Shown here one piece after another: positions 7,144 to 32,706 of a stretch of 64,000 nucleotides of DNA. Under the pieces are notes generated by a model. That model saw nothing but the letters and a program-made list of their open reading frames with translations. It was not told the origin of the DNA and did no database searches. Where the stretch lies: the NCBI GenBank assembly GCA_034658815.1, contig JAYEFY010000030.1, positions 3,337 through 67,336 of the forward strand. Reading direction: 5' to 3'. Origin of the DNA: Patescibacteria group bacterium. Its GTDB lineage: Bacteria; Patescibacteriota; Minisyncoccia; Moranbacterales; DUUL01. The position numbers and the translations under genes were made by a program. How positions within the stretch are numbered: position 1 is the stretch's first letter; every line of letters starts with the position of its first letter.

Positions 7144-7241
7144 AAGTAGAATAGAATATTACACGATTAGATTGTTTGAGATTAAATAATTGGTTGGAGT
7201 AAAATTTAGCAGCAGGCACATAAACTATGTAAGACATAAAT

Positions 7242-8165
7242 ATGCAAAAAGAATATTTTGTAAAAGAAAAAAAGTGTCCCATTTTATTCCTCTTTTTTCT
7301 TCACTTGGTTTCTTTTTGGGCATTGGTAAAATATATTGTTTTACATTTTTTATTTAAGCTAGATACGAAGAAAATAAGAGGAAAGTTTTATGGAAGTTTG
7401 TGGGTAGATCGTTTCAGTTCGTTTAATAGGGGGATAAGATTAAATGCGACAAATTGGAAAGCTCTTGATTCTTTATATAATTACCAAGAAAAAATGAAAG
7501 GATGCGGACTTGTAGAAAGATTCTTTAGTGGCTTTTGGACTAATATGGAAAATTTTCATGCTATAAATAATAGAGCGGAAAAGGTAACAATGATAATAAA
7601 GAAAGAGCTTCAAAAAAATTTTAATAGACAAGAAGTCGGAGAGATCAATGTACTTTCGATAGCTTCAGGCTCCGCGCAGCCATTATTAGAAGCTATAAGA
7701 TCTTTTAGTAGCAAACAACAACAAAGAATAAATTTGACACTTTTAGATTTAGACAAGTCAGCTCTTGATAATAGCAAGGCTTTGTTTGCGGAGTTTAAAA
7801 TAAAAAGCAATCTAAAAACAATAAAAGACTCTGCTCATAACCTAGAAAAATTATTTAATAAAAGAAATTTTGATATAATTGAAATGGTGGGTTTTCTGGA
7901 TTATAGACCAAAATTACGAGCAATTTGCTTAATAAAAAAAATCAAAAAATTAATGAAAAAGCAAGGGATTTTTTTAACGTGCAATATTTATCCTAATAAG
8001 GAAAAATATTTTTTAGACTGGGTGCTACTTTGGCCAATGATTTATAGAAAAAAAGAATTTAAGGAAATATTATTAAAAAGCGGGTTCAAAGATAAGAATA
8101 TTAAAATAATATTTACTCAGTTTACAATACACCAATTGGCTATTTGCTATAACAGAAATAAATAA
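7242..8165 (+). CDS. class I SAM-dependent methyltransferase-like protein with N-terminal TM segment
   Basis: Motif I-like VLSIASGSAQ, acidic LLDLD and FDIIEMVGFLDY. Confidence 0.4.
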   Translation: MQKEYFVKEKKCPILFLFFLHLVSFWALVKYIVLHFLFKLDTKKIRGKFYGSLWVDRFSSFNRGIRLNATNWKALDSLYNYQEKMKGCGLVERFFSGFWTNMENFHAINNRAEKVTMIIKKELQKNFNRQEVGEINVLSIASGSAQPLLEAIRSFSSKQQQRINLTLLDLDKSALDNSKALFAEFKIKSNLKTIKDSAHNLEKLFNKRNFDIIEMVGFLDYRPKLRAICLIKKIKKLMKKQGIFLTCNIYPNKEKYFLDWVLLWPMIYRKKEFKEILLKSGFKDKNIKIIFTQFTIHQLAICYNRNK

Positions 8166-8172
8166 GCTTCGT

Positions 8173-10383
8173 ATGCAGTATATTTTTGCAATTTCAGGGC
8201 TAATAAATGCTATAGCTGCAATATTTTTCAGTTCCCTTATTGTTATTAAAAATAAAAAGGGTGCTGTCAACAAATTATGTCTTTCACTCACTGTAGCAAC
8301 GGCTTTTTGGTCGTTTTTTTACTGGCGATGGCTCTTGGTTTACAATGATGAGCAGAACGCCTTATTTTTTGTTAGACTTTTATCAATTGGTTCCACATTC
8401 TTACCAATAATATTTTTTCATTGGATCCTGACCCTGCTTGAAATAAAAAGAAAGAAAGTATTGATTTTCTATTACTTCCTTACTTTTTTTTACAGCCTAT
8501 TTTTTTTCTCAGATTTATTTATAAAAGGAGTTGAGCCAAAACTAGCTTTTTCTTTTTGGCCAGTTCCAGGTCCAATTTATGATTGTTACTTGATTACTCA
8601 TTACGGAGTTTTACTCTTTTACGCTTTTATTCTTTTGATAAAAGGCTATAAAAAATTCAGTGGGATCAAAAAATTGCAAATAAGATACGTACTGCTTGGT
8701 TCTGTGCTTGGGTTTGGGGGCGGAGCAACAAATTTTTTTCTATGGTATGATATTTCAATACCTCCATTTGGAAACTTTTTTGTTGTCTGCTACATTTTTT
8801 CATTTACCTACGCAATCATTCAACATAGGTTTATGAGTATTCGATTATTGATGAGTAAGGTTTACGTGACACTCATTATTTCCATATGCGCCTATATTTT
8901 ATTTCAAGCGTTTATATATCTCTACTTTCTTTTCATTTCCTTGCATTTGGGACAGATTCAGGTAATCACAATTGAATTTTTTATTGCGTTTATCGTAGCT
9001 GTTTTACTCATTCCATTCTTGAACTATATTCAAAAGTCAAGCGACTATCTTTTTTTTCGAAAAGGCAATCCGTCAACAATGATAAAAAACGTTTCATTGA
9101 AATTGAGTAGTGCCATTGACATGAAACAGCTCTTGTTTCTTTTGAATGCGGAATTCAAGAAAATAATCGGCACCGAGTTTATTTCAATTATTTATACAAC
9201 CCGAAAAACAAGTAGAAGGGCGAGAAAACAAGAACTTATCACGTTCAAAAAAAATGTTCTGAAAACAGTGCCAATAGACAAAGAAAGCAGCCTAATAAAT
9301 TATTTGCTTAAAGGAAGGAAAGTATTTGTTATTGATGAAATTAATGATAGTAATAGTAAGAGTGATATGGAACTTCTCTGGGAACTTAAAAGATATAACG
9401 CGCACATTATTGCTCCGATCGAATCACGCGGAAAGATTATGGGAGCAATTATTTTTGGGCCTAAAATGACTCGGAATGCCTACACGAAAGAAGATATTGA
9501 ATTCATTGAAATAGTGAGTTTTCAAGCGGGAACCACCATTGAAAGCGCGTATTTATATCAGGAAATTAAAAATTTTAATATTCATTTAAAGCGGGAAATT
9601 AAGAAAGCGACAACAGACCTGAAAGCCGCTAATAAGAAACTTATTATTGCATACGAAAAGTTGCACAAGCTTGATCGTGCGAAGTCAGAATTTCTTTCCA
9701 TTGCATCGCATCAATTACGTACGCCGCTTACTTCAATAAAAGGATTTACTTCACTTTTACTTGAAGGCTCATATGGAAAAATCTCAAAAGAAGTAAAGGA
9801 AGTCCTTGAAAAGATATTTTTATCAAATGAACGGCTTGTTCAATTAGTGGAAGATCTGCTTAACATCTCTCGCATTGAATCAGGCAGATTTGTCCTTGAA
9901 CTGAAAAAAAATAATATTTCCAATCTTCTTAAAGGTATTGTCGATTCTTTCGTAATATCGGCTAAATCGAAAAATATTTCGCTTAAATTAATACTTCCAA
10001 AGAAAAAAATCAGAGACTTTTATTTTGACAGCGGCAAGATTCAAGAGGTCATCTCGAATTTTATTGATAACGCGTTAAAATACTCCCAAAGCGGAACCAT
10101 AGCCATTGAGGCGAAAAATATGAAAGATGTAGTTAGAATAGCTGTAACTGACAATGGGCGCGGAATTCTAAATGACGAACTCAGGTACATTTTTGAGAAA
10201 TTCCAGCGCGGTAAAGACGTAAATCAAATTCACACTGAAGGAATTGGACTGGGACTGTATGTCTGCAAAGTAGTCATTAAAGCGCATAAGGGTAAAATTT
10301 GGGCTGAATCAAGGGGCGCCGGGAAAGGCAGTACATTTTTATTCGAACTGAAAAAAGGACTAAAACCAAAAGATATAAAATAA
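8173..10383 (+). CDS. membrane sensor histidine kinase (multi-TM N-domain, GAF-like, HisKA, HATPase)
   Basis: About 7 N-terminal TM helices. H-box SEFLSIASHQLRTPLTSIKG. N/G boxes NALKYS, DNGRGI and GIGLGL. Confidence 0.8.
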   Translation: MQYIFAISGLINAIAAIFFSSLIVIKNKKGAVNKLCLSLTVATAFWSFFYWRWLLVYNDEQNALFFVRLLSIGSTFLPIIFFHWILTLLEIKRKKVLIFYYFLTFFYSLFFFSDLFIKGVEPKLAFSFWPVPGPIYDCYLITHYGVLLFYAFILLIKGYKKFSGIKKLQIRYVLLGSVLGFGGGATNFFLWYDISIPPFGNFFVVCYIFSFTYAIIQHRFMSIRLLMSKVYVTLIISICAYILFQAFIYLYFLFISLHLGQIQVITIEFFIAFIVAVLLIPFLNYIQKSSDYLFFRKGNPSTMIKNVSLKLSSAIDMKQLLFLLNAEFKKIIGTEFISIIYTTRKTSRRARKQELITFKKNVLKTVPIDKESSLINYLLKGRKVFVIDEINDSNSKSDMELLWELKRYNAHIIAPIESRGKIMGAIIFGPKMTRNAYTKEDIEFIEIVSFQAGTTIESAYLYQEIKNFNIHLKREIKKATTDLKAANKKLIIAYEKLHKLDRAKSEFLSIASHQLRTPLTSIKGFTSLLLEGSYGKISKEVKEVLEKIFLSNERLVQLVEDLLNISRIESGRFVLELKKNNISNLLKGIVDSFVISAKSKNISLKLILPKKKIRDFYFDSGKIQEVISNFIDNALKYSQSGTIAIEAKNMKDVVRIAVTDNGRGILNDELRYIFEKFQRGKDVNQIHTEGIGLGLYVCKVVIKAHKGKIWAESRGAGKGSTFLFELKKGLKPKDIK

Positions 10384-10491: not shown

Positions 10492-10497
10492 ACGGCG

Positions 10498-26288: not shown

Positions 26289-26373
26289 ATATCCAAAAAA
26301 ACCGATTCGTGAAGTTCTACAGACTTACGTCTGGAGCTTTTTGGCGCATGGGTAAAATTTCAAAATAAAACAC

Positions 26374-26405
26374 AAAAGACAGCCGCGCGAACGCGGCTGT
26401 CTTTT
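26374..26405. terminator. bidirectional rho-independent terminator (14-bp stem, loop CGAA)
   Basis: The sequence aaaagacagccgcg-cgaa-cgcggctgtctttt lies between convergent pyrG and rpmA. Confidence 0.7.
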
Positions 26406-26423
26406 AATCAGAAAAAAATACAG

Positions 26424-26696
26424 CTATTTCACTTCAATGTATTTTGTTTTTTTCATTTTACCTGTGAATCGGGTAACTTTTTTTGTGAGAAATTTCACAA
26501 CTCCGCTTTTAAGCGCGATAATAGTGTCATCACCGGTTCTTTTCGTATTTCTTCCCGGTCGAAATTTTGTGCCTCTTTGGCGAATGAGTATTTCTCCACA
26601 GTTCACTTCTTGCCCGCCAAAACGCTTTACGCCAAGATATTTTGGTTTGGAGTCGCGTCCAAGCGAAGTCGAACCGCCTGCTTTTCTATGGGCCAT
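26424..26696 (-). CDS. rpmA: 50S ribosomal protein L27
   Basis: [17 protein letters not shown]-terminus. Confidence 0.9.
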
Positions 26697-26819: not shown

Positions 26820-27263
26820 ATGTCAAATAAAATATGTGACTTTTGGAAAGCACATGACACTAAAATACTTACTGTTCTAGCGATTGTCTTAGTGGCTGTT
26901 GTCGCTTTTCGCGCCGGACAGACACAGGAAAGAGAGAATGTCGCCGCCAATATAAATGTTTCGATCAATCCGCTCACAGCGGCGAATCCGGCAGAGCAAA
27001 AAGTAAAAACGCTCGGAGAAACGCTTCAGCGCAAAGGGATCTCAATGAACGAAATTAACGGCGAATCCCAAAAGCAGGGAAGTACGGATACGCAAAACAA
27101 AGAATGTGTCTTTGTGGGAAGCAAGAATTCCAATAAATACCATTTTCCAACTTGTAGCTATGCCAAGCGCATAAAACCGGCAAATATAGTCTGTTTTTCC
27201 GGCGAAGAAGACGCCAAAAGCAAAGGCTACGTTCCCGCCGGATGCTGCGTGGGGAAGAAATAA
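26820..27263 (+). CDS. membrane-anchored hypothetical protein with C-terminal His/Cys-containing putative metal-binding domain
   Basis: One TM helix, then a low-complexity linker. The C-terminus reads KYHFPTCSYAKRIKPANIVCFSGEEDAKSKGYVPAGCC. Confidence 0.4.
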   Translation: MSNKICDFWKAHDTKILTVLAIVLVAVVAFRAGQTQERENVAANINVSINPLTAANPAEQKVKTLGETLQRKGISMNEINGESQKQGSTDTQNKECVFVGSKNSNKYHFPTCSYAKRIKPANIVCFSGEEDAKSKGYVPAGCCVGKK

Positions 27264-27359: not shown

Positions 27360-28385
27360 ATGAAAACCCAAGAACTTATTAAAAGAATTGAAGAAAAAAG
27401 AGGTTCGAAAGTAATCACCTATATTACCAGTGATCGGCAGGGACCGTTAAACGCCAAAGTAGCGATGGATATTATTCCGATAATCAGCAACCAATTGCGG
27501 CAAATTGGAAAAACGGAAGCAATTGACTTGTTGCTTTACAGCACGGGAGGGGACACTATGGTGCCTTGGCGGCTGGTTTCCATGATCCGCGAATACTGTG
27601 ATAAGTTTTCAGTTCTCATTCCTTACAAAGCCCACAGCGCGGCGACAATGATCGCTTTGGGAGCGGATGAAATTGTAATGAGCGATCTTTCCGAGCTTTC
27701 GCCGATTGATCCGTCAACGGCCAATGTTTTTAACCCACAGGATCCTAAAAATCCCCAGGGAAAAATCCCGATTTCCGTGGAAGATGTAATGGCATACTTT
27801 GATCTGGCGAAAAATAAATTCGGGATTAAGAATGATGAAGATTTAACTAAAATTTTTAACAAGTTCGTGGAATCCAACCCGCAAATTCATCCTTTGGCGC
27901 TGGGCAATGTGAACCGAACCCATAATCTCATAAGAATTCTAGCTAAACGTCTTTTGGAAAGCCACCGAGAGCCAATGAGCGGTGATGAGATTGGTAAAAT
28001 CGTGGACTTTCTCACGGAAAAGCTTTATTCCCACCAGTATTTTATCGGCAGGAAAGAAGCCAAGGAAGATTTAGGAATTAAAACAGTGGCTTACGCCGAT
28101 AAAGATTTAGCCGATCTGATGACGCAAGTTTATGAAGAATGCGGAAGCGAAATGAAGATGAATAAAATCTGGAATCCGGAAATTGAACTGGGAGAAAACC
28201 AATCGTTTAATAAAAAGGATTATAAAATCGCTTACATTGAAAGCGCGGCTCTAAGCAATTGTTTTCAATTAACCGTTGAATTTAAAAAAGTCCAGCAAAC
28301 CGTTGCCCAGCCAGCTCCCCAAGGATCCATCAATATCCCGCAGGAACAAGTAGTTTGGAGGGTAATTAAACAAGGGTGGAAGTAA
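27360..28385 (+). CDS. SDH-family (ClpP/crotonase-fold, S49-like) serine protease
   Basis: KAHSAATMIALGADEIVMSDLSELSPIDP matches the SDH_sah/ClpP-class nucleophile region remembered as A.SAGT.IALGADEI.M..LGP.DP. Confidence 0.65.
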   Translation: MKTQELIKRIEEKRGSKVITYITSDRQGPLNAKVAMDIIPIISNQLRQIGKTEAIDLLLYSTGGDTMVPWRLVSMIREYCDKFSVLIPYKAHSAATMIALGADEIVMSDLSELSPIDPSTANVFNPQDPKNPQGKIPISVEDVMAYFDLAKNKFGIKNDEDLTKIFNKFVESNPQIHPLALGNVNRTHNLIRILAKRLLESHREPMSGDEIGKIVDFLTEKLYSHQYFIGRKEAKEDLGIKTVAYADKDLADLMTQVYEECGSEMKMNKIWNPEIELGENQSFNKKDYKIAYIESAALSNCFQLTVEFKKVQQTVAQPAPQGSINIPQEQVVWRVIKQGWK

Positions 28386-29047
28386 ATATGAAGGAATTTA
28401 AATATAAAAACTATTCTATGATAATAGATGAGTCTGGGATAGATTCATTTAAATACTTAACGAGTTCAAATAATTTGAGTAGTTTTGATATTTTTTCTTT
28501 TCTTGATAGCAATAATATTGATCTGATCGTAACAAAAAATTCAACTAAAGAATTAGTTAAGCAGCCATATTTTCCGTGTTTGTTTGCAGGAGAACATGTT
28601 ATAGAATCAATTAATCATAAAGTAAGCCAGACGAGTGCGAGCGATTCACAAAATAACTTAGGAATCTCTAGCTTCAATCTTACTCTTACGAGTACTGCAA
28701 TTGATCAGGCTGCTTATCCTATAAGTGTTTGTAATCCTGAAATTAAAGATAATCTTTGGAGCTATACAAAATTTTGGCCAAGATTGTCAGAAGTAGATAA
28801 AAGTATTTTATATGTATGCAGATCACTTTCTCTTGAAAGAGATAATTTTTTTGTTTTGGTAAATGATAATGATTTAATATATCAGCTAGATTTTGAGGGT
28901 TTTTCCTATTTAAGGAATAGTCAATTTTTAAAATATATGACCAAAAATCATATTATTTCATCTCAAAAAGGTGTAGCTGGATTTGGCAAATGGAGTACTT
29001 ATGATCCGCAATGGATTAAGAAAGACACAACCTTTAAAGATATTTGA
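28376..29047 (+). CDS. hypothetical protein (AT-rich; overlaps protease gene by 10 nt, GTG start)
   Basis: ORF only. No recognisable motif. Translational coupling to the protease gene. Confidence 0.4.
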   Translation: MEVNMKEFKYKNYSMIIDESGIDSFKYLTSSNNLSSFDIFSFLDSNNIDLIVTKNSTKELVKQPYFPCLFAGEHVIESINHKVSQTSASDSQNNLGISSFNLTLTSTAIDQAAYPISVCNPEIKDNLWSYTKFWPRLSEVDKSILYVCRSLSLERDNFFVLVNDNDLIYQLDFEGFSYLRNSQFLKYMTKNHIISSQKGVAGFGKWSTYDPQWIKKDTTFKDI

Positions 29048-29204
29048 ATAAGTATTAAATAAATTTATGCAAAACAGAACTCTTTATTTTGGTGATAATT
29101 TGGAAATCTTGCGCAAGAAAATTGCGGATGAGAGTTTTGACAAATCGGAATTTGAAAAAGTTTAAAGAAAATTTTTGAGTTTCAGTTAGTTTATTTTAAA
29201 ATAT

Positions 29205-29930
29205 ATGAAGCAACATGAAGCAGTTATAAAAACAATGGAAGAAAGCGGCGGTTTTGCAACACTTGGTTTTTTAAATCAAAATGTCGATGTTTCCAATTGG
29301 AAAACAAAAACACCTTTTGCAAGCATCAGGCGCATTGTTCAAGATGCCAGATTTTTCTTTAAAATAAGACCCGGCCTTTGGGCTTTAAAAACTTATAAAA
29401 ATAAATTGCCTGAAAATATTTTTCCAGCAGAAGAAATTTCTGAAACAAAACAAGAAGAGTTTAATCATTCGTATTACCAAGGACTGCTTGTGGAAATAGG
29501 CAATATTAAAAAACAAGAGACATTTGTGCCATATCAAGATAAGAACAAAAAATATTTAGAAAAAAGTTTGTCCGAAGTAACGACTGTTAAAAAGTTCTAT
29601 AATTTTACCTATGAAGATTTATTAAGAAGTGCGATGACAATTGATGTTGTTTGGTTTAATAAGAGAAAAATGCCGTCCAATTTTTTTGAAGTAGAGCATA
29701 CTACAGACATTAAAAACTCTCTTGGCAAGTTTGTTCAACTGCAAGACTTTTACACAAAATTTTATATTGTAGCTGATATTGCAAGAAAAAGAGAATATAA
29801 TGACAAATTAAAATTAAGTATATTTAATTCTGTTCAAAGCAGAGTTAATTTTATTGACTATGAAAGTTTATCTAACTGGCATACAAAAAGTTTTGAAGTA
29901 TGTAAATTAGAAAATAATTTTAATTTTTAA
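29205..29930 (+). CDS. hypothetical protein: N-terminal winged-helix (Mrr_N/HARE-HTH-like) plus C-terminal nuclease-like region
   Basis: N-terminus PFASIRRIVQDARFFFKIRPGLWALKTY resembles the Mrr N-domain ending ..G.WA..Y. The C-terminus IDVVWF..FFEVEHTTDIK has a D..E.E..K pattern. Very AT-rich. Confidence 0.35.
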   Translation: MKQHEAVIKTMEESGGFATLGFLNQNVDVSNWKTKTPFASIRRIVQDARFFFKIRPGLWALKTYKNKLPENIFPAEEISETKQEEFNHSYYQGLLVEIGNIKKQETFVPYQDKNKKYLEKSLSEVTTVKKFYNFTYEDLLRSAMTIDVVWFNKRKMPSNFFEVEHTTDIKNSLGKFVQLQDFYTKFYIVADIARKREYNDKLKLSIFNSVQSRVNFIDYESLSNWHTKSFEVCKLENNFNF

Positions 29931-29933
29931 AAA

Positions 29934-30092
29934 ATGAAACTAAAAGATTTTATTAAAAAATTAGAGAATATTGTAAATAAACATGGAAATGATATAGAGG
30001 TTATTATGGCTGATAATATTTCTGTGGTTAATCCTGTTTTTTCAAAAAAATATCCAAGTGGGAAAAATGTGATTATAACTGATGAGAAATAG
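29934..30092 (+). CDS. small hypothetical protein (52 aa)
   Basis: The ATG lies 3 nt after the upstream stop. Not in the supplied ORF track because it is under 60 aa. Translated manually. Confidence 0.25.
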   Translation: MKLKDFIKKLENIVNKHGNDIEVIMADNISVVNPVFSKKYPSGKNVIITDEK

Positions 30093-30103
30093 GAACTCAA
30101 GAA

Positions 30104-30334
30104 GTGGCTGGCTCTACGGATGAAAAATTGCAAACTTGCGATTTTAAAATTAAGCAGTATAGAAAGCTCCTATCGCGATTAAATATTGAAGTGCAGTATA
30201 TTTATATTCTAAATGATTGGTTCAAAAAGCCAGAATATAAAGATATTTTGGACTATATTATTTCAATAAACGGCTGTTCATATTATTTTAATTATTTGCC
30301 GTTGCAAAAAATCGGTTTACCAATACCAGAATGA
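30104..30334 (+). CDS. small hypothetical protein (76 aa)
   Basis: ORF only. Confidence 0.3.
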   Translation: MAGSTDEKLQTCDFKIKQYRKLLSRLNIEVQYIYILNDWFKKPEYKDILDYIISINGCSYYFNYLPLQKIGLPIPE

Positions 30335-30437: not shown

Positions 30438-31145
30438 ATGAATTCTAAAAAAACTATTGTCATTTCTTTAGGAGGATCGCTAATTGTTCCGGAAGAAGTT
30501 GATTGGAGATTCTTGAAGAAATTTCGCGAATCAATTATTGGGCAAATTCACAAAAACAGGCGATTTGTGATTGTTACCGGAGGAGGGAATACTGCGCGAA
30601 AATATCAAAAAGCTGCGGGCAAAGTAACGAAATTAACTCGTGATGACATGGACTGGATCGGCGTTCATTCAACGCGGCTCAACGCTCATTTGATCAAAAC
30701 CATCTTTCGGCGGTACGCGCATCCTCGTATCAATAAAAACCCGCGCACAAAAGCCGATCTACAAAAACATTTCGCGCATAAAGAGGGAATTGTAGTTGCC
30801 GCCGGATGGCGCCCAGGCTGGTCAACAGATTACGTTGCCACAATTTTAGCTGAACGATTCAAGGCAAAAACAATCATCAATCTTTCTAATATTAAATATG
30901 TCTACGACAAAGATCCCAAAAAGCATAAGGACGCGAAAAAGATCAAAGAGATCTCCTGGAAAGATTTTCGCAAGATAGTGGGGAATAAGTGGGATCCCGG
31001 GCTCAATATGCCATTTGACCCAGTGGCTTCAAAACACGCGCAAAAACTGGGACTCAAAGTTATCATCGCAAAAGGGAAAAATATCAAAAACCTAGAAAAG
31101 ATTTTTAAAGGGGAAAAATTTCAGGGGACTATGATTGAAGGATGA
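30438..31145 (+). CDS. pyrH: UMP kinase, archaeal-type (amino-acid-kinase family)
   Basis: IVISLGGSLIVPE and VVTGGGNTAR resemble archaeal UMPK rather than bacterial PyrH. An isopentenyl-phosphate kinase is the alternative. Confidence 0.6.
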   Translation: MNSKKTIVISLGGSLIVPEEVDWRFLKKFRESIIGQIHKNRRFVIVTGGGNTARKYQKAAGKVTKLTRDDMDWIGVHSTRLNAHLIKTIFRRYAHPRINKNPRTKADLQKHFAHKEGIVVAAGWRPGWSTDYVATILAERFKAKTIINLSNIKYVYDKDPKKHKDAKKIKEISWKDFRKIVGNKWDPGLNMPFDPVASKHAQKLGLKVIIAKGKNIKNLEKIFKGEKFQGTMIEG

Positions 31146-31478: not shown

Positions 31479-31952
31479 ATGTTTTTGTTGGTAAATCAAG
31501 AAGTGTGCTATAATTCAATATTAATACACTTGAAACGCATGGAAAAAAGTTTACTTAAGCAATCTTTTCAAAAAGCCATTCAGTCTTTTAAAGTTTCTTT
31601 GCCGATGATGTTCGGAATTTTATTGCTGATCAGTCTTTTAAATACCGGCTGGCAAGGGTATTACGAGCGTATTTTTACCGGCAATGTGTTTTTAGATCCG
31701 TTGATTGGCGCTTTAGCTGGCAGTATTTCTTTTGGCATTCCGATAGTAAGCTATATTGCTGGCGGGGAACTGCTGGAACAAGGAGTCAGCTTGCTGGCGG
31801 TAACGGCCTTTATGCTGGCTTGGGCCACCGTCGGTATAGCTATGCTGCCGTTAGAAGCCAAATTTTTGGGCTGGCGGTTTGCTTTGGTAAGAAACGCTGT
31901 CAACTTTATTTTTGCCATTGTGATTGCTATCTTAACTGTTTATACAATTTAG
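31479..31952 (+). CDS. predicted permease, N-terminal half (DUF318/two-component permease-like)
   Basis: A polytopic membrane protein. It is followed, after the repeat element, by a second similar-size membrane ORF. Confidence 0.45.
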   Translation: MFLLVNQEVCYNSILIHLKRMEKSLLKQSFQKAIQSFKVSLPMMFGILLLISLLNTGWQGYYERIFTGNVFLDPLIGALAGSISFGIPIVSYIAGGELLEQGVSLLAVTAFMLAWATVGIAMLPLEAKFLGWRFALVRNAVNFIFAIVIAILTVYTI

Positions 31953-32166: not shown

Positions 32167-32706
32167 ATGAACAACCAAGTAAAAAAACAGAAGATAGGTG
32201 GTGGTACAAAGTTTTTAATGGCAGTTTTGATTTTATACGCGGTTATGGCCTTGTCTAATTTTCAATTTGCGTCTGAAGCTTTTTTAAGTTTTTTGCGTAT
32301 GTTAGTCCGTATCACCCCGATATTAATTGTAGTATTTTTTATTATAGCAGGAGTCAACTTTTACTTCACTCCCCAAAAAGTTAAGAAATATCTGGGACAT
32401 GGTTCCGGCTTCAAAGGATGGCTGTACGCTGTTATTTCCGGAATTTTAGTTTCCGGTCCGCCGTATATATTATTTCCGCTTTTAGGAGAACTAAAAGAAC
32501 GCGGAATGAAAAATTCTCTGCTGGCTGTGTTTCTATACAATAGAAATGTAAAAATACCATTTTTGCCGGTAATGGTATTTTATTTTGGCTTAAGTTTCAC
32601 TGTTGCCGTTTCCGTATTTATAATTTTCTTTTCTATTTTGAACGGCTTGTTGTTAGGATGGTGGGTAGCGGACAATCAAAAAATTTATAACAAAGAAGCC
32701 AAGTAG
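32167..32706 (+). CDS. predicted permease, C-terminal half
   Basis: A polytopic membrane protein that starts 12 nt after the repeat end. Confidence 0.45.
   Translation: MNNQVKKQKIGGGTKFLMAVLILYAVMALSNFQFASEAFLSFLRMLVRITPILIVVFFIIAGVNFYFTPQKVKKYLGHGSGFKGWLYAVISGILVSGPPYILFPLLGELKERGMKNSLLAVFLYNRNVKIPFLPVMVFYFGLSFTVAVSVFIIFFSILNGLLLGWWVADNQKIYNKEAK

Follow-up and report, generated by a model that had tools for sequence, protein, structure and literature searches.

An accessory islet in a Patescibacteria contig, read as a probable nested mosaic of two unrelated cassettes

The five co-directional genes between 27360 and 30334 of a 64,000-nucleotide (nt) stretch of a Patescibacteria (Candidate Phyla Radiation, CPR) contig, hereafter the window, probably represent two unrelated accessory cassettes that form a nested mosaic at a variable chromosomal spot. 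Sequence comparisons suggest that the two modules are independent, the protease gene that leads the islet belonging to a CPR-wide unit (module A) and the last three genes to another (module B). The original prediction had placed five plus-strand open reading frames (ORFs) here, all of which are present, and had regarded them as one compact cassette; that part found no support, as the last three genes form a cassette of their own, the protease recurs elsewhere, and a methyltransferase remnant lies between the two halves. The placement of the contig in the Patescibacteria follows from a 'sunset' domain and from the source names of identical proteins, and labels such as L053 and L001 denote comparison loci. 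The islet consists of the following features (lengths in amino acids, aa):

27360–28385, plus strand: SDH-type ClpP-fold serine protease, 341 aa (profile match to PF01972)
28388–29047, plus strand: predicted PIN-fold nuclease, 219 aa, or 223 aa from a GTG at 28376 (fold search)
29067–29141, plus strand: putative 5' remnant of a methyltransferase gene, 25 codons (comparison with full-length methyltransferases)
29165–29188, plus strand: methyltransferase stub tail KKIFEFQL, left edge of module B (translation)
29205–29930, plus strand: winged-helix and NmeDI_C endonuclease of PD-(D/E)XK type, 241 aa, intact (profile and motif)
29934–30092, plus strand: p52, a small conserved protein of 52 aa (family comparison)
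30086–30334, plus strand: p76 gene fragment with an ORF of 76 aa at 30104–30334 (comparison with L001 and L076)

The join between the modules lies in the 157-nt gap behind the second gene, which holds a 32-codon ORF that stays open until a stop at 29165. Its first 25 residues, MQNRTLYFGDNLEILRKKIADESFD, are identical at 23 of 25 positions (92%) to the N-termini of two full-length methyltransferases, L021:9792-11423 (543 aa) and L011:1160-2683 (507 aa), both encoded just 3' of a protease gene, and DNA identity reaches 83.5% over 29062–29140. The L021 protein is a clear type II/III methyltransferase (PADLOC MTase_II, 1.6e-67), and L011 combines the protease closest to that of the window (80%) with a methyltransferase directly 3' of it. 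The 32-aa remnant gave no Pfam match even at E = 10, and its identity came from these neighbouring methyltransferases, by which it appears to be the start of a type II/III N6/N4 DNA methyltransferase gene. The octapeptide KKIFEFQL stands in a frame different from that of the remnant and resembles the conserved stub end ...GLKKDFEFHL found 5' of NmeDI_C genes, while DNA homology to L001 starts at 29173. The junction therefore looks like a chimera of the 5' end of a resident methyltransferase gene and the left edge of an incoming cassette: module B would have recombined into the methyltransferase gene of module A, leaving 25 codons and removing the sequence behind them. The same remnant occurs in L013 with different cargo. 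No intact DNA methyltransferase was detected in the window, where a tblastn search with 28 methyltransferases matched only the remnant and the stub.

The guanine-cytosine (GC) content agrees with the impression, first gained by eye, that the genes after the protease are AT-rich compared to their flanks. The window averages 38.6% GC (700-nt windows, standard deviation 3.5 points), and the islet falls to a minimum of 26.0%, ~3.6 standard deviations under this mean. By gene, GC content is 41.8% for the protease, 28.9% for the PIN protein, 28.9% for the NmeDI_C gene, 23.9% for p52, 30.3% for p76, and 41.2% for pyrH, and GC at third codon positions is 17–22% in the three middle islet genes. The break coincides with the stop codon of the protease, which consequently lies outside of the AT-rich stretch (24–30% GC).

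Module B, from ~29165 to 30334, comprises the winged-helix/NmeDI_C endonuclease, p52, and p76, the last of these being a small-nuclease gene in truncated form. The module shares 86.8% DNA identity with L001 over 929 nt (29173–30100) and 79.6% over 30097–30321, and in L001 the cassette sits between a UvrD-like helicase gene and pheS with no protease, so that module B appears to be a portable AT-rich cassette. The p52 family has 22 members immediately 3' of NmeDI_C genes, with 62–72% identity in L001, L004, and L076 and only weak PHROG matches. The 52-aa and 76-aa ORFs of the original prediction both exist, the latter as a fragment of a family whose members elsewhere have 128–184 aa: p76 is 87% identical at the protein level to the C-terminal part of L001:6916-7302 (128 aa, PDDA...LEIK), and corresponds to the 3' 60% of a small D...E-x-K nuclease-like gene from which the part encoding the N-terminal P-D motif is deleted (family lengths 51–184 aa). 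A deletion of ~170 nt that joins the end of p52 to the E-I-K region is common to the window (30078–30110) and L076 (5240–5320), and a short form of the cassette consequently circulates beside the long form of L001. A programmed frameshift joining p52 and p76 was considered and set aside, given two in-frame TGA codons just 5' of the p76 frame and the lack of a canonical slippery site. As a separate observation, six loci (L118, L119, L125, L128, L131, and L133) carry a recurrent pair of a 63-aa and a ~121-aa ORF 3' of NmeDI_C. The latter protein ends in ...WIQARTKG...RAFYAR..., which may resemble the C-terminal part of MutH/Sau3AI-type nucleases; if this likeness is correct, the right flank of the cassette would be a graveyard or toolbox of nuclease fragments.

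The flanks of the islet are core genes, as originally proposed, with the correction that a 'sunset' gene separates the protease from rpmA:

26424–26696, minus strand: ribosomal protein L27 (rpmA), core flank
26820–27263: 'sunset'-domain protein, 147 aa, between rpmA and the protease
30438–31145: PyrH-like amino-acid kinase, core flank

One related locus, L053, is collinear with the window in L9, CTP synthase, L27, sunset, pyrH, and PD-(D/E)XK genes (38–74% aa identity). Its sunset and pyrH genes are directly adjacent, so that the whole block is lacking at the junction, an outcome that the original prediction had put up for testing in related genomes and that supports the accessory status of the block. 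L053 has a protease cassette elsewhere, and in L013 such a cassette lies between malic enzyme and pyrH, from which it follows that its position relative to core genes is not fixed. Aligning the islet borders with the junction in L053 was uninformative, since the intergenic DNA is too diverged. Conservation of the same five genes in synteny across lineages had been named as evidence that would speak against an accessory block; among the protease and NmeDI_C loci compared, none repeats the five-gene set. Hallmarks of genomic islands or prophages were lacking in that no tRNA is nearby (the only ones in the window are at 10497 and 19377) and no significant flanking repeats, or repeats resembling attachment sites, were seen at the islet borders; integrase domains were tested in part of the flanking ORFs, and within this scope the earlier statement that neither an integrase nor a tRNA abuts the islet stands. 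An Rfam scan of the islet matched no family.

The protease matches PF01972 with its N-terminal 125 residues (1.1e-15, 57.8 bits against a cut-off of 31.3), which bears out its description as an SDH-type serine protease, and scores 66.4 bits against the 250 set for the NCBIfam equivalog NF047768. By these profiles it is a member of the Pfam family but not of the equivalog. It shares the Gly-Gly-Asp and Lys-Ala-His-Ser-Ala motifs with the SDH Clp-fold serine proteinases (PF01972, relatives of MEROPS S49), and differs from them in falling far below the equivalog cut-off, in a conserved C-terminal extension of ~200 aa, and in being soluble rather than SppA-like; a variable gene slot behind the protease is not described for that family. 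It also matches phrog_11747 (3e-41). Homologues are numerous (2,506, full length, 75–82% identity), and the alignment has a mean column identity of 78%. G63-G64-D65, K90-A91-H92-S93-A94, D117, and H177 are invariant in 23 relatives, and on the basis of these motifs the protease is apparently consistent with an active enzyme. The PDB holds no sequence relative of the protease.

To describe its surroundings, 80 protease loci were taken from reference genomes and the neighbours clustered. In 65 of 74 loci, the gene 3' of the protease shares its orientation, and the median gap is 12 nt; these genes nevertheless fall into 45 different families. A methyltransferase of at least 240 aa (N6/N4) follows within seven genes in 15 of 53 loci and a ResIII helicase in 10 of 53; roughly one module A locus in four has a type II/III DNA methyltransferase behind the slot gene, often accompanied by a ResIII helicase. 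Genes around the protease that were assigned by Pfam include PIN, Bro-N, RhuM, DUF6941, DUF6680, Zeta toxin, and SNase, while Doc/Phd, Fic, GIY-YIG, AbiEii-like, GmrSD-like, and serine-recombinase genes were read from motifs and are putative. The 1.5 kilobases (kb) 3' of the protease average 33.6% GC compared to 38.3% for the rest of the locus (66 loci). Protease identity hardly varied with the partner (0.781 versus 0.767) and did not track core-gene divergence, with 74.6% in L053 (pyrH 74%) and 77.7% in L013 (pyrH 54%). Genomic contexts vary, and four genomes have two copies. Taken together, the duplicate copies, the partner-independent identity, and the lack of tracking of core divergence argue for a cassette that moves horizontally, and the data point to a conserved protease gene whose 3' end adjoins a slot prone to recombination. 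Compared to type III restriction-modification (R-M) systems, related protease cassettes carry an N6_N4 methyltransferase followed by a ResIII helicase, whereas the window is without functional Mod and Res (Mod is reduced to 25 codons and the islet has no ResIII ORF), and the counterparts in L021 and L011 score best as type II methyltransferases with no adjacent ResIII.

Some further observations concern the protease loci. In L022, L029, L031, L032, and L080, the protease and variable genes are found inside a heat-shock cluster, between grpE and dnaK-dnaJ and 3' of hrcA (putative gene identities, read from the sequences), a placement that could mean stress-regulated expression or merely a favoured insertion point. 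At L013 5824-6190, between the protease and a DUF6941 gene, there is a ribosomal protein L33-like ORF (50 aa) plus ~200 nt that may hold a tRNA; because of the L33-like ORF, the slot can hold core genes in some lineages. Protease homologues with 71–82% identity are also filed outside the CPR (P0123 and L033, L046, L056, L083, L088, and L089), under Promethearchaeota, Gammaproteobacteria, Omnitrophota, Smithella, and Nitrospirae metagenome-assembled genomes, and these are either mis-binned CPR contigs or real cross-phylum transfers. A phage origin of the islet was found to be unsupported: scans of viral contigs with the protease and with the nuclease returned no relatives, and phage records matched only the N-terminal part of the protease at 30–37% identity.

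The second gene had been described as a protein of unknown type, and its profile searches (Pfam, NCBIfam, PADLOC, PHROGs) with the 223-aa form indeed gave no match. A fold search returned PIN domains only, and the protein has the alpha/beta/alpha fold of a PIN nuclease; an assignment to DUF3800, suggested by an 'IDESG' motif, was dropped on the same result. A word-index search found a single relative and an exhaustive HMMER search 48, all full-length with 25–41% identity. In an alignment with 36 relatives, I-x-D-x-S-G, S-x-x-D, and L-x-N-D are conserved, D14, D137, and D160 are invariant or nearly so, and a Glu near residue 55 is largely conserved. In Pfam, only two of 37 relatives match PIN_4 (E = 0.0026), and the window protein shows no match. 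The 10-nt overlap with the protease that had been taken as a sign of translational coupling rests on the choice of the GTG at 28376; the alignment fits the ATG at 28388 better, 2 nt after the protease TAA, and the NCBI start is later still (209 aa). The overlap is consequently an artefact of the start that was chosen, and the coupling is nevertheless tight. With the VapC/PIN toxins, the protein has in common the PIN fold, the conserved acidic residues, and an AT-rich accessory setting, which in related loci includes other toxin-like genes. It differs in its length (219 aa), in an inserted subdomain of ~60 residues, in reaching no Pfam PIN threshold, and in its partner: no small antitoxin gene of the VapBC (type II toxin-antitoxin) kind is found upstream, where the 341-aa protease lies 2 nt away with no small ORF between, and it is the protease that is coupled instead.

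In module A, then, the protease would be the constant component and the slot would hold swappable effector or toxin-like genes, with the conserved 3' end of the protease gene as the site of the recombination that exchanges them. The working pair in the window would be the protease and the PIN ribonuclease, with the protease perhaps controlling the activity or stability of the PIN protein.

The 241-aa protein of module B has 7,394 homologues in CPR and other phyla, a few of which also carry a HARE helix-turn-helix (HARE-HTH) domain. PF27126 (NmeDI_C) is assigned to the identical protein P0001 and to 120 of 120 among the matches listed. The earlier description as a winged-helix and nuclease-like protein held up in both halves, although by different means: the fold search recovered the winged helix at the N-terminus only, and the PD-(D/E)XK assignment comes from the NmeDI_C profile and from motifs, with E97, D112, E162, E164, and K175 invariant and D147 nearly so. 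Against the named systems of PADLOC-DB v2, the protease, the PIN protein, p52, and p76 gave no match and the nuclease only a generic REase_II (7.4e-8), in line with the earlier failure to match the islet to any named system. Its content is nevertheless tied to genetic conflict, as had been suspected, given a restriction-type nuclease, a predicted PIN nuclease, and a methyltransferase remnant.

I examined the context of NmeDI_C in 84 loci, and a stub of one beta-class methyltransferase family was found directly 5' of the nuclease gene in 40 of them, usually ending in ...KKDFEFHL. The 3' two-thirds of the methyltransferase was not found downstream of NmeDI_C in any of the 84 loci, and the idea of a gene split by the nuclease was rejected for this reason. 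Only the most divergent loci keep a longer methyltransferase, still truncated in L164 and L166 or with a degenerate AdoMet (S-adenosylmethionine) motif in L168, as read from the sequences. Stub and nuclease mostly co-diverge (Mantel r = 0.44, p <= 0.001). Some near-identical nucleases nevertheless follow very different stub 5' halves, as in L119 and L121, where identity falls from 96% to 81% and then to 57% with distance upstream, and such differences imply recombination inside the stub. Stub identity before and after the DPPY motif averages 0.75 and 0.80, and truncation points at 140 and 237 aa also occur. Apart from this, the ~80-aa stubs in L091–L170 keep open frames, with a ratio of nonsynonymous to synonymous substitution rates (dN/dS) of ~0.21, where dS is saturated. 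Such stubs may be translated and have a use, perhaps as leaders in translational coupling or as homology arms, or else the signal may date from the time when they belonged to full genes.

Several points weigh against the proposed mosaic and the roles given to its parts. L053 has its protease cassette only ~5 kb away on the other side of the core block, so local rearrangement instead of insertion could explain its 'empty site'. Protease GC content correlates with host GC content (r = 0.69), which makes the protease a long resident and no recent arrival. Neither the protease nor the PIN protein has a match in PADLOC, and a literature search gave nothing that links SDH proteases to PIN nucleases or defence, or that describes systems led by an SDH protease. 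Protease and partner do not co-vary, so the slot could be nothing more than an insertion hotspot. For module B, dN/dS computed on sampled sequences was 0.11 for NmeDI_C and 0.33 for p52, which are rough values because dS is saturated (~1.4). The AlphaFold 2 model of the nuclease core is poor (predicted local distance difference test score, pLDDT, of 60), and the PD-(D/E)XK core therefore rests on profile and motif evidence. The ancestral state of NmeDI_C resembles a classical operon of methyltransferase followed by restriction gene (L162, L164, L166, and L168), which mildly favours a nuclease blocked by methylation over one that depends on it, and the search for a methyltransferase covered 64 kb of the genome.

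The most serious competing explanation is that the slot is just such a hotspot behind a lineage-typical housekeeping or proteostasis enzyme, in which unrelated accessory genes (PIN, R-M, and toxin-antitoxin genes) pile up with no link between protease and PIN protein; I regard this as somewhat unlikely. Partner identity is nearly independent of the protease sequence, as this explanation would have it, the partner families Bro-N, RhuM, DUF6941, and DUF6680 are typical genes of the mobile pool, the GC content of the protease is host-like, and in many genomes the gene resides inside the hrcA-grpE ... dnaK-dnaJ cluster. A resident housekeeping gene is harder to reconcile with a protease that changes its chromosomal context, is present twice in some genomes, is absent from the junction in L053, and has an identity that does not follow core-gene divergence, while the short same-strand gaps to its partners suggest co-translation.

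For the nuclease of module B, an intact gene under purifying selection beside a methyltransferase gene that is repeatedly truncated or degenerate most likely means that the nuclease does not depend on that methyltransferase. The preferred reading is a type IV-like, modification-reading role, in which a solitary restriction-type nuclease would use its winged helix to read a DNA feature such as a base modification, and losing the methyltransferase beside it would then be harmless or even advantageous. Fusions of winged helix and nuclease are modification-dependent enzymes (PMC11037411), and HARE-HTH-REase fusions are recurrent conflict effectors (PMC12839542). Like the DpnI-like type IV enzymes with a winged-helix fusion (PMC11037411), the window protein is solitary, has a winged-helix reader fused to a PD-(D/E)XK-type nuclease, and lacks a functional partner methyltransferase; it differs from them in its domain order, winged helix then nuclease, and in the descent of its family from a methyltransferase-linked operon. 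Its winged helix is HARE-like, a type that more likely senses cytosine modifications (PMC11037411).

That the 241-aa protein is instead an ordinary type II enzyme, with the host protected by a methyltransferase of matching specificity from another part of the genome, is unlikely. In essentially all loci with data, an intact nuclease stands beside a truncated or degenerate methyltransferase, and this order of decay is the reverse of the usual course of R-M decay, in which the restriction gene is lost first. On the other hand, divergent relatives keep a near full-length methyltransferase directly 5', L004 has a C5 methyltransferase two genes 3' of the nuclease, the PADLOC match is to REase_II, a protective gene could lie outside of the 64 kb that were searched, and the domain family takes its name from R.NmeDI, a type II enzyme that has been characterised (PMC2095814). 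The window protein shares only the C-terminal domain (PF27126) with R.NmeDI and, ancestrally, the order of a methyltransferase followed by an overlapping or abutting nuclease. It is shorter (241 versus 351 aa), has a winged-helix N-terminus and no Vsr gene in its system, and its partner was a beta-class N4/N6 methyltransferase, now truncated, rather than a C5 enzyme; beside the nuclease, the 25-codon remnant and the 8-codon stub tail are all that is left in place of an intact cognate methyltransferase. Double-sided cleavage around RCCGGY is known for R.NmeDI only (PMC2095814).

Improbable, too, is a selfish nuclease of the homing type with methyltransferase genes as its target, which inserts at a conserved point near the DPPY motif IV region and destroys its own target site; this would account for the broken methyltransferase always seen beside it. 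Many divergent loci do share one conserved end-point of the stub, the near-identical nucleases of L119 and L121 follow very different stub 5' halves, the cassette in the window entered a methyltransferase gene of another family near this motif, and the nuclease family is very large, spans phyla, and is carried on a cassette that is AT-rich compared to its host. True homing would retain both gene halves around a fixed site; here the end-point is fixed in many loci, and the 3' part was never found downstream. Stub and nuclease are moreover largely co-inherited, the difference in identity around DPPY is small, and other truncation points exist.

A single novel antiphage or abortive-infection operon of five genes, which the co-directional and tight spacing, the nuclease and protease content, and the lack of a predicted strong plus-strand terminator within the block might suggest, is highly improbable given that the last three genes recur without the protease in ~84 other loci, the protease recurs with 45 other partner families, a methyltransferase pseudogene remnant divides the halves, p76 is a fragment, and no locus repeats the set.

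Around the islet, the gene order is thioredoxin-reductase-like, malic enzyme, L9, CTP synthase, L27 (minus strand), sunset, and the islet, followed on the 3' side by the PyrH-like kinase, permease pieces, and a PD-(D/E)XK/Cas4-like nuclease. The sunset protein (26820–27263) has an N-terminal membrane segment and a C-terminal 'sunset' domain, scores 22 bits against NF051437, slightly below the cut-off, has a weak Ada Zn-binding match, and is 41% identical to its counterpart in collinear L053. Elsewhere in CPR, the sunset domain is seen as a fusion to ribosomal proteins. At 26373–26406, where the CTP synthase and L27 genes converge, a GC-rich hairpin with a perfect stem of 14 bp is flanked by T-runs and is probably a bidirectional terminator; its sub-threshold Rfam match to RefA9 (34.8 bits against 49) is probably due to the hairpin alone. 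The permease pieces are two neighbouring membrane-protein ORFs (31479–31952 and 32167–32706), of which the second fits the first half of the ArsP_1 permease profile. They may constitute a split or two-piece permease, and L053 is apparently without counterparts of them between pyrH and the PD-(D/E)XK gene. The sole other stretch of the window with less than 31% GC, at 7200–8700, includes an ORF (7242–8165) for a class I S-adenosylmethionine-dependent methyltransferase (Methyltransf_31, 3.6e-8), outside of the DNA methyltransferase families, that adjoins a 7TM-GAF histidine kinase gene (8173–10383).

A more far-reaching proposition joins two claims, and in this combined form I consider it doubtful. 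It holds that a CPR-wide conflict architecture exists in which a constant SDH/ClpP-fold protease is translationally coupled to an exchangeable effector slot, often with type III R-M, and that the slot may contain PIN, DUF6941 plus a membrane protein, RhuM, Bro-N, and others; and that the very abundant winged-helix/NmeDI_C nuclease spreads by recombination into methyltransferase genes, which it replaces, so that it would persist as the methyltransferase beside it is lost, contrary to the normal course of R-M decay.

The genomes of CPR/Patescibacteria are tiny, and little is known of the defences that they encode. If the protease and its slot form a functional cassette, they would represent a new modular immune or toxin architecture specific to the CPR radiation, and the slot occupants would give a handle for finding new effectors. 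In the NmeDI_C family, with more than 7,000 members, an intact nuclease beside a repeatedly truncated methyltransferase challenges the rule that restriction genes die first, and could mark a large unrecognised class of self-safe nucleases that are either modification-dependent or targeted to methyltransferase genes. For annotation, the islet illustrates that a neat row of co-directional genes that looks like one 'operon' can consist of two unrelated cassettes with a pseudogene scar where they meet.

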